From a phage, in the sequence record PX871047.1: a stretch of 42,242 nt of DNA. One strand, 5' to 3'. Below are positions 3,300-41,301 of this stretch, piece by piece; positions within the stretch are counted from its first letter, which is position 1; each line of letters opens with the position of its first letter. Under the pieces are notes generated by a model that saw nothing but the letters and a program-made list of their open reading frames with translations, was not told the DNA's origin and searched no databases. The position numbers were made by a program, and so were the translations under genes.

Positions 3300-3468
3300 G
3301 CCGGTAGTTATTGAGGGCGTCCTGTGGAAACCTTACTCGGTTAACCACATCGACGCCGACGGGAAGAAGTTCAGCTTCTACATTTTTGCAATTAGCCGGG
3401 AGCACGCCGCTTGTGTGGTAGACGATATACGAGAAACGGCGTGGCTTGGTGATGAGATAGTGGGGTAA
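3286..3468 (+). CDS. hypothetical protein
   Basis: Track ORF 3235..3468; internal ATG 3286 chosen to limit overlap; start uncertain. Confidence 0.4.
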   Translation: MESPKPVVIEGVLWKPYSVNHIDADGKKFSFYIFAISREHAACVVDDIRETAWLGDEIVG

Positions 3469-3555
3469 GAGTATGAGTCTAGAGGTGGTTATCGGTCTGG
3501 TTGGTCTTAGTTACTTCGTTGGGCTGTTGGTCGGGTTTATGTGGGGTAGATACTA

Positions 3556-7870: not shown

Positions 7871-7899
7871 ATAGTACCCTATTATATTGGTGTCTGCAA
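7871..7899 (-). promoter_or_regulatory. promoter with embedded AATAG-N4-CTATT dyad (type A)
   Basis: Minus strand reads TTGCAG - 17 nt - TACTAT; dyad at 7870-7883. Confidence 0.55.
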
Positions 7900-9608: not shown

Positions 9609-9637
9609 ATAGTACGCTATTATGTTGGGGTGTGCAA
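9609..9637 (-). promoter_or_regulatory. promoter with embedded AATAG-N4-CTATT dyad (type A)
   Basis: Minus strand reads TTGCAC - 17 nt - TACTAT; dyad 9608-9621. Confidence 0.55.
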
Positions 9638-15113: not shown

Positions 15114-15526
15114 TGGGCTACTTTGAGGACTTAACAAAAGCGTTTGACGTGCCGCTGGTATCGTTCGGAACCGCCAACGGCATCAAGGTTGCGCTTGAAA
15201 ACATCGACGCGCCAACGTCAACCAATACCCCGTATCTGGCAAGTTACATGTTGCTCGCTGATACGGAGCAGGCGGATTTGTTCTTCACGGAACAACGCTC
15301 AGGTGTTTATCAGGTCGACATTAACTACGCATCGGTGAAAGGTAGCGCGCCAATCAATAAAATGGCAGACTTACTTAACACGGCATTCAAAGCAGGTAAG
15401 TCATTTTCACGTAACGACATCTGCGCCGAGGTTCAATCGGTTAGCCTGGGGCCACTGATTGTAGAAAACGGATGGGCCAAACGACCATTGTCAATTAACT
15501 TTATTGCATTCACCAAGAGGCTGTGA
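15110..15526 (+). CDS. tail completion/terminator protein (putative)
   Basis: Track ORF immediately before major tail gene. Confidence 0.4.
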   Translation: MMGYFEDLTKAFDVPLVSFGTANGIKVALENIDAPTSTNTPYLASYMLLADTEQADLFFTEQRSGVYQVDINYASVKGSAPINKMADLLNTAFKAGKSFSRNDICAEVQSVSLGPLIVENGWAKRPLSINFIAFTKRL

Positions 15527-16695
15527 ATATGGCTACAACTCCTTTTAAGGGCGCGAATACCGCGCAATTCTATGTGGCGGAAGTGACCCCGGGCGTAACA
15601 CCAAGTAACCCGGTATGGTCGCCGTTGCGCAACACTGGCGGCGTTCCTGCGGTAACCCGCGATGCGCTGACCTCCAACGAACTGGACGGCAGCCGTGAAA
15701 CTACGTCCATCCGCACTGGTAACAAGCAGGTCAGCGGAGAGTATGCCATTGAGCTTAGCTCCCGTAGTCAGGATGATTTCCTCGCTGGTGCGATGACATC
15801 TACGTGGCAGGATGGGGTAGAGATTACGGGTGCAGAAATTACGGTCGCCCCCGTAGGTAAAACATTCACCCGCGCCGCTGGTAGCTTCATTACCGACGGT
15901 GTAGAAGTTGGCGACCTGATTGCGTTCACCGACTTAACCGGCGACAACGCAAAACCGTTTATCGTGACCGCGGTTTCTGCTCTTGTAGTTACGGGCGCGG
16001 GCATTCAGCACACGCTGACAGCAGAGACTGTAACCACCGACGCTAAAACCGGCGACAAACTGGAAACCGGTAACGCATGTAAGACGTTCTCCATCCTGAC
16101 ATGGTTCAAAGGACAGTGCGGGAACCCTGACGCGTACATGTTGACCAAAGGCGTGGAAATCTCCGGTTTCACCATTGAACAGGCCGTAAACGCGATGGTG
16201 ACAGGCAGCTTCCCGTTCATCGGTCTGAGTCAGGAAATTCTTTCCACACCGCCAGCAGGTTCTGATTTCTCTCAGGTGACGTTTACTGATGAGCCGTTCT
16301 CCTCTGTAGATGTGTCTGTGTTCGACGGTTCTACGCCGTTGCGTTGCGATACTCTGACCATCACCAACGACAACGGCGCATCTGCTCAGTTCGAACTCGG
16401 CAACAGCAGCGTTGCGTTCGTGGAACGAGGTCGCGCGGCTAACACCTTCTCCATCTCCGGCAAGCTGTACGACATGGCGATGATTCAGAAGTTTATCAAC
16501 GAACAGCAGGTAGAGATTAACTCTATTCTGGCGGGGGTAAACGGTGCTATGTCTTTCAGTTTGAAACGTGCCGAACTTACGGCGGTCACACCAGAAATAT
16601 CTGGCCCGGAATCAATTACCCAAAGTATAGAAGGGCAGTCCACAGGCAATCAGTACCAGTCGTCTATTGTTATCCAGCGTATCACCTACGCATAA
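15523..16695 (+). CDS. major tail protein (putative)
   Basis: 390-aa ORF, last gene before terminator, upstream of chaperone/tape-measure genes. Confidence 0.5.
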   Translation: MNMATTPFKGANTAQFYVAEVTPGVTPSNPVWSPLRNTGGVPAVTRDALTSNELDGSRETTSIRTGNKQVSGEYAIELSSRSQDDFLAGAMTSTWQDGVEITGAEITVAPVGKTFTRAAGSFITDGVEVGDLIAFTDLTGDNAKPFIVTAVSALVVTGAGIQHTLTAETVTTDAKTGDKLETGNACKTFSILTWFKGQCGNPDAYMLTKGVEISGFTIEQAVNAMVTGSFPFIGLSQEILSTPPAGSDFSQVTFTDEPFSSVDVSVFDGSTPLRCDTLTITNDNGASAQFELGNSSVAFVERGRAANTFSISGKLYDMAMIQKFINEQQVEINSILAGVNGAMSFSLKRAELTAVTPEISGPESITQSIEGQSTGNQYQSSIVIQRITYA

Positions 16696-16700
16696 AACTA

Positions 16701-16723
16701 AGGCCCCGAAAGGGGCCTTTTTC
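16701..16723. terminator. bidirectional intrinsic terminator
   Basis: AGGCCCC / GGGGCCT stem, GAAA loop, TTTTCT; near-identical to terminator at 29235. Confidence 0.7.
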
Positions 16724-16900
16724 TCACTCACTTTTGAATGGCATTTCGTAGAAGTTAGTTAACTGACCTCTGTCACTCCGTTCTGTCATCTCTTTTGTCG
16801 CCTCTTCCTTGCTACCTACGGCGTAAATATCAACCCACTCATCCCATTCTTCGTCATATACGCGGATAACGTATATTGCCCCCATTGTGCCTTCACGCAT
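16724..16900 (-). CDS. hypothetical small acidic protein
   Basis: Last gene of reverse-strand island; track ORF 16724..16930 begins at TTG; internal ATG 16900 chosen, start uncertain. Confidence 0.4.
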   Translation of the reverse strand: MREGTMGAIYVIRVYDEEWDEWVDIYAVGSKEEATKEMTERSDRGQLTNFYEMPFKSE

Positions 16901-17462
16901 TTGGGTAAATCCCCAGGATTCTATTGGCAACCGTGGCCGCGGTTAATGTAATCTCACCAGGAATGATGGCGACGTCATGGCATACTACCCCATCAATATC
17001 GTACAGGTAGCCACGGCTATCCCCGTCAAACGTGTAGCCGTCTCGGTGCAAGCGGACGATTCGCACGTCATGCCCAGCGGCGACGATAGGGGCAACTTCA
17101 CTGGCAAACCCACCGTCGGACACCACAAAAACTTCGTCGCCGTCAGGCAAGTTTTCAGCGAGATACTTACCGAAATAATCATTGCCAAGTACAGGCTTAA
17201 TGAATTGCTCCGAGATAGCAATCATGAACTGACGTCGCGACAACCCATTAAGGAAACATTCTGGCTTTTCTTTCCGTGCCCGGTCGTCGTAGCCGTCGAG
17301 AAATTCGTGGTAAGCATCCGGGCCTAACGCTGCCCGAGCAATATTGAACATTGGATTCTTGAAACTGGTAGTTCCTTTCGCAAAGCCCATTTCTACCATC
17401 GCCATAGCAAGCGTGTCTTTCCCGCAACCCGCAGGGCCATTAAGGATAATTACCTTAGCCAT
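16893..17462 (-). CDS. P-loop nucleotide/polynucleotide kinase-like protein
   Basis: Walker A GPAGCGKDT near N-terminus; start overlaps stop of upstream phosphatase gene. Confidence 0.6.
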   Translation of the reverse strand: MAKVIILNGPAGCGKDTLAMAMVEMGFAKGTTSFKNPMFNIARAALGPDAYHEFLDGYDDRARKEKPECFLNGLSRRQFMIAISEQFIKPVLGNDYFGKYLAENLPDGDEVFVVSDGGFASEVAPIVAAGHDVRIVRLHRDGYTFDGDSRGYLYDIDGVVCHDVAIIPGEITLTAATVANRILGIYPNA

Positions 17463-17947
17463 TATTTATTGCTCCCGTGTGATTTTAAGTGTGTAGAGTT
17501 CCCGTTACAGTCGTATTCAGTAACCGCGTGCGTAGTGACTCCTAAGCCGCGGAAATGCTTAATCACCGCGGGCGAGTCGTCGAATGCGCACAATATTCTC
17601 TCCAGCCCGATAGCACGCAACACCTCTTCTTTAATTACGATGTCTTTTCTGTTGTCGTGTTTGCTGCGCATGATTAGCTGATAAAATTCGACGCGGTGGC
17701 GCTGCAGCCACATTCTGGTTTCTTTTTCTGCATCATCACTGCGGCCCGTTAAAATAATAACGGCATAGCGACGATTAAGGGCGTTACACAGTTCGATGTT
17801 ATCTTTAATGGGCGCGTCATCTTTGCAGGCCATGTTAAAAGGCTTCCACGCCCATGTTTCGTTGTAGTTATCTTTCGGTAGCAGGTGTAAACGATGAGTA
17901 CCGTCCGCCAATGTCCCGTCTAAATCGAAAATCACAATATCTTTCAT
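17462..17947 (-). CDS. HAD-family phosphatase, T4 polynucleotide kinase-phosphatase phosphatase-domain-like
   Basis: N-terminal FDLDGTLA (DxDxT) motif; later TGR...DNRKDIVIKEEV block recalled as similar to T4 Pnkp phosphatase domain. Confidence 0.55.
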   Translation of the reverse strand: MKDIVIFDLDGTLADGTHRLHLLPKDNYNETWAWKPFNMACKDDAPIKDNIELCNALNRRYAVIILTGRSDDAEKETRMWLQRHRVEFYQLIMRSKHDNRKDIVIKEEVLRAIGLERILCAFDDSPAVIKHFRGLGVTTHAVTEYDCNGNSTHLKSHGSNK

Positions 17948-19074
17948 CCCAGCATCTCCGGTGAAATAGTTAAACGTGCAACCTCACCATATTCGGCGCT
18001 ATAAGTAATTACATTTGCACTGCGCCCTGACATCCAACCGCCGCGTGAGGCATAGGCGTCTTTAGCCGCTAAGGTTCGGTGTTGCTCAACAATCATGTTA
18101 CGGCTTTCTACAATCTTCTGATGGTGCAGGTGGCCTACGTGGGCGTAGCTGTAAACACTCTCTCCGAACGCTTTGCGGAACTTAGCAATCATTACCGGTT
18201 CGATAGCGTCGAATCGTGCTTTATGCCCGTGATGGAAGAACAGCGTCGTTTTGCCGTGTTGCACCATCTTGTAAACATCCGGCGACGTATCGACGAACAC
18301 ACGAGGCTCATTGTCGTACAGCGTGCTGAACATCTCAGCCAGCCAAATCATTCCGCTTTCGTCGTGGTTCCCTTGCACGATAAGCAAGCGAACATTTTTA
18401 TGCTTAACGAGTGCCATATCAACAACACGGCGGACCATACGAATCATGTAGCGGACCAGTTTCTGATAGCGCGTGTCCGCGTCAAGAACATGACCACTCG
18501 CTGGCGTAACCGCATCCAGGCTATCGAAGTGTGCAAGGTCACCTAGCAGATTAATAACACCCGTTCCTGCATCCGGCGCTTTCTGAAACGCAGCATCGAA
18601 CCAGCGAGAGAACAGGTCTTCCGCAATCTTCATATCCCAGTCGTCGCCGCTCTCGTCGGCCCAGGCCAGCATACCGAGATGGAAATCAGACACAGTGTAA
18701 AGGTTGAGTAGTTTATCGTCGCGTTTAGCGCGGGCGGCTTTAACAGGCGCAACTGGCGTAATCTCTGACTTCATGCCTTCGATTACGGCTTTCATCAACT
18801 CGACCTGACGTTCGGCGTCAGTGTCTGTCTTAACCCATTGCAACTTAGTGTTGCCGGACTCATCCACCAGGGACGACGTCCCTTTAATCTTGTAGCCGTC
18901 AGGAACAAGGTGACTAACGTCACGCCCGTGACCCACGCCTTTCTTGGCCAGCTTCGCTTTACGGATACGAATAACGCGGTCTGAGATGCCGTATTTACGG
19001 GCAATGTCGATATTCTTCATCCCGGCGTTCAATTCTTCCTGTAACTGTTCGTCGGTTATTTTCTTCCGGGCCAT
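17944..19074 (-). CDS. HTH-domain calcineurin-like metallophosphoesterase
   Basis: N-terminal HTH-like NIDIARKYGISDRVIRIRK; metallophosphoesterase motifs DFHLG, GDLAHFD, GNHD, HHGH, GHLHH. Confidence 0.6.
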   Translation of the reverse strand: MARKKITDEQLQEELNAGMKNIDIARKYGISDRVIRIRKAKLAKKGVGHGRDVSHLVPDGYKIKGTSSLVDESGNTKLQWVKTDTDAERQVELMKAVIEGMKSEITPVAPVKAARAKRDDKLLNLYTVSDFHLGMLAWADESGDDWDMKIAEDLFSRWFDAAFQKAPDAGTGVINLLGDLAHFDSLDAVTPASGHVLDADTRYQKLVRYMIRMVRRVVDMALVKHKNVRLLIVQGNHDESGMIWLAEMFSTLYDNEPRVFVDTSPDVYKMVQHGKTTLFFHHGHKARFDAIEPVMIAKFRKAFGESVYSYAHVGHLHHQKIVESRNMIVEQHRTLAAKDAYASRGGWMSGRSANVITYSAEYGEVARLTISPEMLG

Positions 19075-19112
19075 GCTTATGTCCTCATGTGTAGGATTTG
19101 TCCTATACTAGC

Positions 19113-19304
19113 TTACTTCTCGTTAACATTCGAGTTGCAAGCCCAGATTAAAATAAAGACCCACGGCAGCAGAGCCCAGCCAAGAAACAGGTTAGCCATG
19201 AATATTGCCAACTTCGCTTTATGGCCACGCATATGGGCTACTAAAAACGGGATAAAATAAACTAAAACGATAATGATTAAGAAGAACATAGTAATGCCAG
19301 TCAT
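19113..19304 (-). CDS. superinfection-immunity-like small membrane protein
   Basis: Two TM segments with RGH...NLFLGWALLPW pattern; AGGAGC RBS; first gene after promoter 19346-19374. Confidence 0.5.
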   Translation of the reverse strand: MTGITMFFLIIIVLVYFIPFLVAHMRGHKAKLAIFMANLFLGWALLPWVFILIWACNSNVNEK

Positions 19305-19345
19305 GGTGTAGCTCCTGTTTGAGTTAACATTGTTGGTGTAAGTGA

Positions 19346-19374
19346 ATAGTATCCTATTATGTTGGGGTGTGCAA
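19346..19374 (-). promoter_or_regulatory. promoter with embedded AATAG-N4-CTATT dyad (type A)
   Basis: Minus strand TTGCAC - 17 nt - TACTAT; 33-bp block 19342-19374 identical to reverse complement of 41273-41305. Confidence 0.6.
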
Positions 19375-19481
19375 GTAATGTGTTAGAATTATTTTGCGCC
19401 TAGTGTCGCACACGAAAAGCGGGTGGTTCCCGTCTGGCGCATTCACATTAACCAGTAACCTCTTAACCAAAGGATTAAAGA

Positions 19482-19898
19482 ATGAAACTTTCTGATTTTT
19501 ATTACGAAGCTGAGGCAGAAAAAGGCGCCCGTATGCCGATCCCACTGAAAGACGGCACCGATTCAGGGGAGTGGCTGAACGTTGTTTCACCGGAGGCAGA
19601 CGTTGCCGTTAAAGCTATGAGGGCGTTTACACTTGCGTACCGCGCGGCATTAGGTAAATTGAAACCGCTTCGTGATAAATGCGAGGAACTGAAAGATTTC
19701 TCGGAATACAATATCAAGATGGAAGACGCCGCAACGGACCTTAACCGCCAGTTAGCGCTTGAACTGGTTAACGGTTGGAGTCTCGACGATGAATTTAATA
19801 AAGAGAACCTAAATACTCTTTTCTCACAATATACACGACTCGCTGAACACGTTGTTGTTTTCCACAATGAACAGCTACGCCAATTGCAGGAAAAGTAG
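19482..19898 (+). CDS. tail assembly chaperone (G-like, putative)
   Basis: Acidic 138-aa ORF directly upstream of tape measure; followed by -1 frame ORF. Confidence 0.45.
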   Translation: MKLSDFYYEAEAEKGARMPIPLKDGTDSGEWLNVVSPEADVAVKAMRAFTLAYRAALGKLKPLRDKCEELKDFSEYNIKMEDAATDLNRQLALELVNGWSLDDEFNKENLNTLFSQYTRLAEHVVVFHNEQLRQLQEK

Positions 19899-20263
19899 AC
19901 GCGTTGCTCCAGTTTGCCCGTTGGAACTTCATAACCCGCCACAAACGGCGGGAGTTTGACAGTATCGCAGATGGGCATAAAGCCGCGCTAATTGCTATGG
20001 GGGCTATGCAAGACGCGCCGGAAGCAACGCAGGACACCGGGCCGGAATGCCCCCCTGAACTATTAACCACCTTCGAGAAGTACCGGGAAATCAAATTTAC
20101 CCGCCGAGTGGATGACGACGGCATCAAGATGTACCCGCGCGAACAGTTAAGATGGTCGGATTTAGTGGCATACAGCACCGTTTCAGGCCAGAATATAGGC
20201 ATGTTTGAATCTGACATCATCATGAGCTTAGACGCTATTTTCGAGGGTAGAAACGATGGCTGA
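19889..20263 (+). CDS. tail assembly chaperone frameshift extension (GT-like, putative)
   Basis: ORF in -1 frame relative to 19482..19898, open from 19871; candidate slip site A_AAG at 19892-19895 next to TAG stop. Confidence 0.35.
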   Translation, partial: GKVDALLQFARWNFITRHKRREFDSIADGHKAALIAMGAMQDAPEATQDTGPECPPELLTTFEKYREIKFTRRVDDDGIKMYPREQLRWSDLVAYSTVSGQNIGMFESDIIMSLDAIFEGRNDG

Positions 20264-41234: not shown

Positions 41235-41272
41235 GAATCACAACGGCAACGTAACTATTCTCTTGCACACCC

Positions 41273-41301
41273 CAACATAATAGGATACTATTCACTTATC
41301 G
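41273..41301 (+). promoter_or_regulatory. early promoter with embedded AATAG-N4-CTATT dyad (type A)
   Basis: TTGCAC - 17 nt - TACTAT; dyad 41289-41302. Confidence 0.6.

Follow-up and report, generated by a model that had tools for sequence, protein, structure and literature searches.

The phage DNA analysed here, a stretch of 42,242 nucleotides (42.2 kb; sequence record PX871047.1) referred to in full as the window, carries its terminase, portal, head and tail genes on the plus strand and its replication genes in the right third, on the other strand. The closest DNA relatives, at ~88-92% identity, are EcoPhCCP1, EC3-1, ST20 and the K1G/K1ind group (Kagunavirus, Guernseyvirinae; E. coli siphophages), and the window phage is itself a virulent member of the Kagunavirus group that infects E. 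coli. A slot between the genes for the tail tube and for the tail assembly chaperones holds five open reading frames (ORFs) on the minus strand, at 16724-19304. They encode an Imm-type membrane protein, a metallophosphoesterase (MPE) with a helix-turn-helix (HTH) domain, a HAD phosphatase, a P-loop kinase and a small acidic protein. This island is very probably an autonomous accessory cassette in a recombination hotspot common to the Guernseyvirinae, and it is composite: the first unit is the Imm gene, and the second is a mobile MPE-HAD-kinase module with a 58-aa add-on. The features that define the locus are the following.

15523-16695, plus strand: tail tube (major tail) gene, one flank of the slot; PF18906 Phage_tube_2, E 5e-37
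16700-16724, both strands: bidirectional intrinsic-terminator hairpin with T-run (stem-loop 16700-16719), AAGGCCCC-GAAA-GGGGCCTT
16900-16724, minus strand: small acidic protein, 58 aa from ATG
17462-16893, minus strand: P-loop kinase, 189 aa; Walker A GPAGCGKDT
17947-17462, minus strand: HAD phosphatase, 161 aa
19074-17944, minus strand: HTH-MPE, 376 aa
19304-19113, minus strand: Imm-type membrane protein, 63 aa
19374-19346, minus strand: predicted island promoter, 'type A', TTGCAC-17-TACTAT inside a repeated 29-mer, TTGCACACCCCAACATAATAGGATACTAT
19482-19898 and 19904-20263, plus strand: tail assembly chaperone genes, the other flank; PF08748 and PF23812

An earlier, sequence-only reading of the window had described five minus-strand genes between the major tail and chaperone genes, and all of them are present where it placed them. 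Overlaps of 4, 1 and 8 nt join the last four, at the junctions ATGA (MPE/HAD), TAATG (HAD/kinase) and ATGCGTGA (kinase/small acidic), and make the translational coupling proposed in that reading plausible. The gap between Imm and MPE is 38 nt. For the small acidic gene the ORF list gives a TTG start at 16930, and the EcoPhCCP1 annotation has the 58-aa form. Homologues of the tail tube protein in the relatives are variously named tail tube, major tail or 'minor tail' protein. Base composition was considered as a mark of foreign DNA and set aside, the GC content of the island being ~0.49 compared with 0.50-0.54 in its neighbours, with a skew that merely tracks the coding strand.

Slot content and boundaries in the Guernseyvirinae

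The slot holds at least one reverse-strand gene in every Guernseyvirinae relative examined. Its boundaries are conserved and its content, from one gene to six, differs among the relatives, so that the five genes of the window are not a set common to all of them. The range is illustrated by six phages (L numbers denote the loci on which the coordinates are given).

Klebsiella phage VLCpiS11a, L003 3676-3930, reverse: one gene, for an 84-aa YebO-like membrane protein
Cornellvirus Shemara (Salmonella), L004 3702-4064, reverse: one gene, for a 120-aa signal-peptide protein
Serratia phage Smarc3, L069 4683-~5009, reverse: one unannotated signal-peptide ORF in a 490-bp 'gap'
Jerseyvirus MA12, reverse: four genes, for Imm, MPE, a 76-aa protein and a Rha/Ant regulator (Ant/Roi)
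Bas72, first gene at L006 3825-4151, reverse: four genes, among them one for a secreted protein in first place, then MPE and the 76-aa protein
Bas74, reverse: four genes, among them Imm in first place, then MPE and the 76-aa protein

The Kagunavirus-type loci from IMG/VR, which were retrieved through the kinase as query, have MPE, HAD and kinase in 16 of 16 cases; they hold five or six slot genes, and Imm is replaced in five of them. The small acidic gene was found only in the four closest of the IMG/VR loci (L010-L013) and in EcoPhCCP1, at 61-98% amino acid identity; its product has no Pfam, PHROG, NCBIfam or PADLOC family, and the gene is probably a recent add-on. A small envelope protein invariably takes first place in the slot. 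It may be an Imm-type protein with two transmembrane (TM) segments or one of several unrelated small proteins; those of Bas72, Shemara and Smarc3 have a signal peptide and two cysteines. This pattern suggests that the first position is dedicated to envelope or exclusion functions. Natural relatives without the enzymes argue for the dispensability of these in virion production.

In phages that lack HAD and kinase, the 76-aa protein is translationally coupled to MPE (L006 2402-2632, L007 2403-2633 and L002 3484-3714). Its E. coli and Salmonella phage versions share ~91% identity; it has no assigned family and may be an alternative partner of MPE. A suspected resemblance to DUF3310 was dropped, as there was no Pfam match.

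The island ends at a hairpin (16700-16719) with a folding energy of -16.3 kcal/mol on the plus strand (z -4.4, equalled by 0 of 200 shuffles), where UUUUUCU follows, and of -15.9 kcal/mol on the minus strand (z -3.0), where AGUUUUAU follows. A terminator scan called the hairpin on the minus strand, and it is kept in 20 of the 20 relatives examined, whichever island gene comes last. The bidirectional terminator of the sequence-only reading is thus recovered as a conserved hairpin of ~-16 kcal/mol with a U-run on both strands, and it is predicted to end both the tail tube and the island transcripts. The locus of the Salmonella phage MA12 (Jerseyvirus, L002) has the hairpin twice, at ~2670-2701 and 3454-3490, on either side of the Rha/Ant (Ant/Roi) gene. 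Duplication around this insertion suggests that cargo may be swapped by recombination at the hairpin boundaries.

At the other end of the island, the predicted type A promoter lies in a 29-mer that occurs four times in the window, spacer included, at 19346 (minus strand), 41263 (plus), 9609 (minus) and 7871 (minus). It agrees with the sigma-70 consensus at 8 of 12 positions, which is under the threshold of a generic promoter scan. Downstream of every copy, at ~25-35 nt, come a Shine-Dalgarno sequence and a start codon, ATG. In an alignment of 13 relatives, conservation begins sharply at the -10 element (~19342), whichever gene follows, and both hexamers are conserved. The promoter that had been proposed at 19346-19374 is supported by this repetition and conservation, and we infer from the sequence that the island is transcribed autonomously. 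A coarse RNA-seq time course of vB_Eco_K1B4, a Kagunavirus, put the Imm gene into one class with the DNA polymerase and methylase genes, and the cited tail protein gene into another (PMC12645636). Taken together with the type A copy that heads presumed-early small genes, the Imm class makes it likely that the island is expressed apart from the tail genes, and it is probably expressed before them.

The sequence-only reading had termed the island a moron-type cassette. Like the morons of lambdoid phages, it is, by prediction, a promoter-gene-terminator unit between structural genes, variable in its presence and with no structural role, and the accessory part of that description stands, as do the conserved promoter and terminator boundaries. 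In its strict sense of a prophage-expressed gene, however, the term is inapplicable to a virulent phage group, in which prophage expression does not occur. The island further differs from lambdoid morons in that its promoter is one of a four-copy family also serving presumed early genes, and in that the slot is ancestral to the subfamily. Reverse-strand accessory cassettes are already known as a kind, and each of the three enzymes comes from a known superfamily; the recurrent trio of HTH-MPE, Pnkp-type HAD and dNMP-kinase-like kinase, and its exchangeable slot under a repeated promoter, appear to be undescribed in the literature searched.

The proteins of the island

NCBIfam returned nothing informative for the island proteins, and their assignments come from other family models, from motifs and from predicted structures. 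The 63-aa protein has two hydrophobic helices and matches PF14373 over residues 15-56 with 52.5 bits (gathering score 27.9), as well as phrog_1039. It is probably an inner-membrane protein of the T4 Imm family involved in superinfection exclusion, in keeping with the immunity-like membrane protein of the sequence-only reading. Its resemblance to T4 Imm lies in the family match and in the small two-helix membrane architecture; it differs in that, in the siphophage slot, the gene is exchangeable with those of unrelated envelope proteins, and its role there is a predicted one.

The 376-aa protein consists of a LuxR/sigma-r4-like HTH (residues ~1-45), a beta-hairpin/helix linker (~60-105) and the MPE domain (~120-376). 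It belongs to a very large and uncharacterised phage family: a search of a representative library found homologues in 4640 clusters, of which 1160 scored E<1e-30, and the protein matches 2041 phage records. Members of the family share the N-terminal LuxR/sigma-r4-type HTH and the MPE core. An alignment of 40 diverse homologues shows no variation at D130, H132, G178, D179, N236, H237, H282 and H317, and H315 is present in at least 90%. The predicted structure (pLDDT 87) recovers the MPE fold, and both halves of the fusion read from the sequence, together with the invariant metal-binding residues, are in place. Structure comparison of the model puts the MPE fold nearest to the PolD-DP1, Mre11 and SbcD nucleases; its viral structural neighbours are all uncharacterised, and motif II has the form GDxxH, as in Mre11. 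Searches of PDB with the MPE, by sequence and by profile, reached no solved structure and returned HTH noise only.

On its modelled fold, the 376-aa MPE looks like a DNA nuclease, and the N-terminal HTH implies that the substrate would be double-stranded DNA. It differs from Mre11, SbcD and PolD DP1 in having the HTH and the beta-hairpin linker, in a model that is devoid of a capping domain, and in standing in the island without a Rad50/SbcC partner. The MPE gp48 of mycobacteriophage A10ZJ24 is a DNase that degrades host DNA (PMC12287305); this protein has no HTH, and its likeness to the 376-aa protein would lie in the MPE class and in a DNase activity that is predicted for the latter.

The MPE gene is found alone in Dhillonvirus (75% identity, beside the small terminase gene), in Jerseyvirus, in Bas72 and Bas74 and in a lambdoid contig. 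In Dhillonvirus Envy the homologue lies directly upstream of the small terminase gene (L008 3995-5137), and in the lambdoid contig it occupies the NinI position directly upstream of the gene for antiterminator Q (L063 5001-6487). The C-terminal ~125 residues are nearly identical in Kagunavirus, Jerseyvirus and Dhillonvirus, whereas the N-terminal half diverges, which suggests mosaic exchange within the gene.

The 161-aa HAD protein matches PF25109 HAD_PNKP with 69.5 bits (cut-off 27.6), as well as phrog_415 and phrog_505, and among PDB sequences it matches Pnkp1 (4xrp, E 4e-6) and T4 Pnkp (5uj0, 2e-4; 1ltq, 2e-3). The motifs DLDGT (D8-L-D10-G-T12), LTGR, RKD..KEE (RKD-V-KEE) and FDDS can be read in its sequence. 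DLDGT supplies the catalytic DxDxT nucleophile and acid-base pair, and LTGR, RKD-V-KEE and FDD align with T4 Pnkp and provide the equivalents of Ser211, Lys258 and Asp278. The roles of these residues in the T4 Pnkp phosphatase are documented, and that enzyme also acts on 3'-dTMP (PMC3592404). The HAD phosphatase of the sequence-only reading can accordingly be sharpened to a predicted stand-alone 3'-phosphatase of the Pnkp type. It has PF25109, the PDB matches 4xrp, 1ltq and 5uj0, and the DxDxT, S/T-G-R, RKD..KEE and DD motifs in common with the phosphatase domain of T4 Pnkp/PseT and with Capnocytophaga Pnkp1. Unlike in T4 Pnkp, no Pnk-type kinase domain is fused to the 161-aa protein; the neighbouring kinase comes from a different, dNMP-kinase-like branch, and no ligase partner was found.

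The kinase shows the GKDT Walker A motif expected of the P-loop kinase described earlier. In structure comparison its closest solved fold is T4 dNMP kinase (gp1, PDB 1dek; 18% identity). The nearest folds are those of dNMP and adenylate kinases; RNA kinases score at most 8.5, and T4 Pnkp falls outside the top 60. The protein also matches phrog_139 ('dNMP kinase'). A profile search of PDB sequences with the kinase did not retrieve 1dek and gave P-loop noise only, and membership of the dNMP-kinase-like branch draws mainly on fold and context. As to context, a distant homologue in Faunus adjoins genes for a dUTPase and a ligase, and one in EK010 adjoins an NrdA-like gene and an exonuclease gene. 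The modelled fold thus points to a dNMP-kinase-like enzyme rather than a polynucleotide kinase. It differs from T4 gp1 in length (189 aa, compared with 241 aa) as well as in the low identity given above, and the profile similarity between the two is limited to the P-loop.

A further distant homologue of the kinase occurs in the Escherichia Vequintavirus VB-EcoM-WM (L067 3004-4205), where it is paired with an NT5C HAD nucleotidase next to ThyX, ThyA and ribonucleotide reductase (RNR). This pair is a second, independent pairing of a kinase with a HAD phosphatase.

The three enzymes recur together outside the Guernseyvirinae. In 22 Webervirus-type (Drexlerviridae) IMG/VR loci of ~49 kb, MPE, HAD and kinase are contiguous and in the same order, with amino acid identities to the window proteins of 42%, ~68% and ~46%, respectively; there they are part of a co-directional operon, flanked by a Dam-like methylase gene and the lysis genes. 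Other T1-like loci have HAD and kinase within ~1.5 kb, and in the T1-like phage PaulSarasin an MPE homologue (43% identity) lies ~10 kb from HAD/kinase. The Aeromonas podophage Ahp1 (Autographiviridae; L065 1482-3645) has an HTH+Metallophos protein, gp25, followed by HAD (47%) and kinase (35%). Ahp1 gp25 was considered as a member of the window MPE family, but the hhalign comparison was not significant, and it counts as an analogous protein of a different subfamily.

Proposed function of the trio and its alternatives

We propose that the trio couples DNA breakdown to nucleotide salvage, a tentative reading that in our estimate falls just short of an even chance and that is built in part on analogy. 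The HTH-tethered MPE nuclease would cut DNA, most plausibly that of the host, and release nucleotides; the Pnkp-type HAD would strip the 3'-phosphate off DNA ends, or off 3'-nucleotides that otherwise block or escape the flow; and the dNMP kinase would feed 5'-dNMPs back to the dNDP/dNTP pool for phage replication. No RNR or thymidylate synthase is annotated in the related genome EcoPhCCP1, and a phage of this type would have much to gain from the nucleotides in host DNA. T4 gp46/47 (Mre11/Rad50-like), together with gp1, is a precedent for DNA breakdown combined with salvage.

In the pre-early set of T5, host DNA degradation requires the predicted metallophosphatase A1, which also suffices for it. 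A1 acts with the DNA-binding protein A2 and is encoded near the HAD phosphatase Dmp, which processes dNMPs (bioRxiv 10.64898/2026.04.02.716235). The T5 set and the island have in common an MPE implicated in DNA degradation, a DNA-binding function (here the HTH), a HAD phosphatase that acts, or would act, after DNA breakdown and a small two-TM protein (T5.005), encoded by clustered genes that are expressed apart from the structural genes, in the island by prediction. They differ in that HTH and MPE are fused here, in that the HAD is of the Pnkp 3'-phosphatase type and not of the Dmp type, and in that the window cassette has no link to a two-step DNA transfer. T5 discards the nucleotides, whereas the cassette carries a putative dNMP kinase, which suggests their re-use.

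Several points weigh against the coupling of breakdown to salvage. BLASTP and profile searches with the island proteins against T5 A1, A2, Dmp and T5.005 gave motif-level matches only, and since the proteins are not detectably homologous, the comparison with T5 is one of analogy, not of membership. The MPE stays under the Pfam gathering scores for Metallophos (PF00149, 18.9 vs 21.5 bits; PF12850, 21.5 vs 27), the family being too divergent for these models, and no Rad50/SbcC partner is present in the island or in the EcoPhCCP1 annotation. MPE nucleases normally generate 3'-OH termini, which leaves no explanation for why a salvage line should require a 3'-phosphatase. An hhalign comparison of the kinase with T4 gp1 covered 36 columns with a probability of 20% and was significant only over the P-loop, and the structural margins are modest in general. 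The genes also occur apart, MPE alone in several phage groups and HAD with kinase but without an adjacent MPE in many T1-like phages, so that the three appear to be repeatedly brought together but separable, and do not form an obligate unit. Lastly, the literature found on the trio or on the Guernseyvirinae slot consists of genome announcements, with no functional study among them.

The same proteins could instead make up an end-healing or repair module, a split Pnkp with an added phosphodiesterase, that reseals broken tRNA or nicked phage DNA. The MPE would then open 2',3'-cyclic phosphates or trim damaged ends, the HAD would remove 3'-phosphates and the kinase would phosphorylate 5'-OH groups, to counter anticodon nucleases or other nucleases that leave 3'-P/5'-OH ends. 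Consistent with such a role, the HAD is a bona fide domain of the Pnkp-phosphatase type and has the P-loop kinase as a constant neighbour, an echo of the two halves of T4 Pnkp. Many depositors label the pair 'polynucleotide kinase/phosphatase', and bacterial CthPnkp joins a kinase to an MPE-type phosphoesterase with cyclic phosphodiesterase activity (PMC2190708). The kinase fold, however, is nearest to dNMP kinase, and its distant homologues reside in nucleotide-metabolism neighbourhoods; the MPE, with its HTH and its Mre11/DP1-like fold, suggests a DNA rather than a tRNA target. The island contains no RNA ligase or Hen1, and the EcoPhCCP1 annotation contains no RNA ligase, Hen1, tRNA genes or RNA-repair partners, although remote ligases are possible among its hypothetical proteins. 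The nucleic-acid end processing suggested in the sequence-only reading thus fits the HAD and does not fit the kinase, and we regard end healing as a serious, though less likely, alternative for the function of the trio.

Competition between phages would assign a blocking of superinfecting DNA to Imm and the destruction of foreign DNA to HTH-MPE, with HAD and kinase as optional helpers. Kagunavirus and Jerseyvirus slots do have Imm and MPE as their common core, the first slot gene always encodes a small envelope protein, and T5 has a two-TM protein between A2 and A1. Several loci nevertheless keep MPE without Imm or with Imm replaced, and MPE occurs without any Imm in Dhillonvirus, Webervirus, the lambdoid nin region and elsewhere. 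With no sign of discrimination between self and foreign DNA and no PADLOC match, we regard this role as improbable.

A counter-defence role, by which the trio would destroy or convert nucleotide signals (cyclic nucleotides, m6dAMP) and thereby keep abortive-infection systems silent, is doubtful to a similar degree. Pairs of MPE and HAD act in sequence on nucleotides in PUA-Cal-HAD and Metis, for which the trigger is m6dAMP from phage-induced genome degradation (bioRxiv 10.64898/2026.01.15.699771, 10.1101/2025.11.05.686725). A dNMP kinase or a phosphatase could remove a signal of the m6dAMP type, and the kinase homologue in the Vequintavirus has an NT5C-type HAD nucleotidase as its partner. The parallel is purely analogical, though: PADLOC models matched 0 of the 5 island proteins and indicated no homology to those defence proteins, and the HTH and the nuclease-like fold are left unexplained. 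The defence or counter-defence function entertained in the sequence-only reading is possible and found no direct support.

As a long shot, the trio could be a 'quiet demolition' kit, in which the nuclease dismantles host DNA while the phosphatase and the kinase at once convert the mononucleotides, m6dAMP included. The phage would then gain dNTPs and in the same process erase the danger signal read by Metis and PUA-Cal-HAD, and the presence of the trio in at least three phage lineages would represent a previously unrecognised counter-measure to nucleotide-sensing immunity.

It is highly improbable that the island genes are an essential part of tail assembly or no separate transcription unit: they are located within the tail operon, with at least one reverse gene there in every relative examined, but the slot varies from one to six genes, the enzymes carry no structural-protein signatures, the genes run on the opposite strand with their own predicted and conserved promoter and terminator, and the trio adjoins lysis or replication genes in other phages. 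A role in virion assembly is essentially ruled out, and the earlier view of the genes as accessory is upheld.

If the trio does serve the destruction and recycling of host DNA, this would account for the nucleotide supply of small siphophages that replicate without RNR or ThyA, and would bear on which hosts' nucleotide-sensing or nucleotide-depleting defences are triggered or evaded. Each gene of the trio has homologues in ~1,500-2,000 sequenced phage records, including therapeutic candidates (Kagunavirus, Jerseyvirus, Webervirus, T1-like), and these homologues bear conflicting names, such as 'DNA repair exonuclease', 'DNA polymerase II small subunit', 'polynucleotide kinase' and 'replication factor C'. 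The slot is also a natural insertion site for engineering these phages, and the recurrent module, the dNMP-kinase-like kinase and the exchangeable slot are a concrete and cheap experimental target.

Further predicted promoters, and a conserved element beside the slot

The other copies of the type A promoter, and two features between the island and the chaperone genes, are listed below.

41263-41291, plus strand: type A copy, exact 29-mer; precedes a plus-strand run of small genes at the window end/start
9609-9637, minus strand: type A copy with one spacer difference; precedes a ~31-aa hydrophobic reverse ORF (~9582-9487)
7871-7899, minus strand: type A copy with one hexamer mismatch; precedes an 81-aa reverse ORF (7845-7600) between the portal and head-morphogenesis genes
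19362-19389, plus strand: candidate divergent extended -10 promoter, TTGGGG-16-TGtTAGAAT; read from the sequence, not called by the scan
19394-19443, no strand assigned: nearly invariant element with a predicted fold, separating the divergent promoters from the first chaperone gene

With the minus-strand copies taken together, the structural operon appears to be interrupted by three promoter-led reverse units, not by one. EcoPhCCP1 also has four type A copies, and the equivalent of the 41263 copy heads a cluster of small hypothetical genes. The conserved spacer of the 29-mer hints at a possible binding site for a regulator.

The plus-strand candidate at 19362-19389 overlaps the island promoter back to back. 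Its TAGAAT is conserved in all Kagunavirus relatives, and the candidate would give the chaperone and tape-measure genes a fresh start of transcription downstream of the tail tube terminator. With the island promoter it would form the divergent pair that, opposite the terminator, delimits the hotspot throughout the Guernseyvirinae.

Nine Kagunavirus-type loci out of 12 carry the 50-nt block at 19394-19443 unchanged, and the remaining three carry it with one or two changes. Its folding energy is -19.1 kcal/mol, with a z-score of only -1.7, and Rfam has no family anywhere in the window, this element included. A sixth gene upstream of Imm, annotated in relatives as an ORF of 30-37 aa (e.g. Bas74_0024), was weighed as an explanation of the block, and a non-coding element was judged likelier. 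In the Jerseyvirus MA12 the block differs by two double compensatory changes in the predicted Y-shaped fold and by one change from G-T to G-C. It may be an RNA or a DNA element, perhaps an operator that lies between the two divergent promoters, or a stem-loop at the 5' end of the chaperone mRNA.

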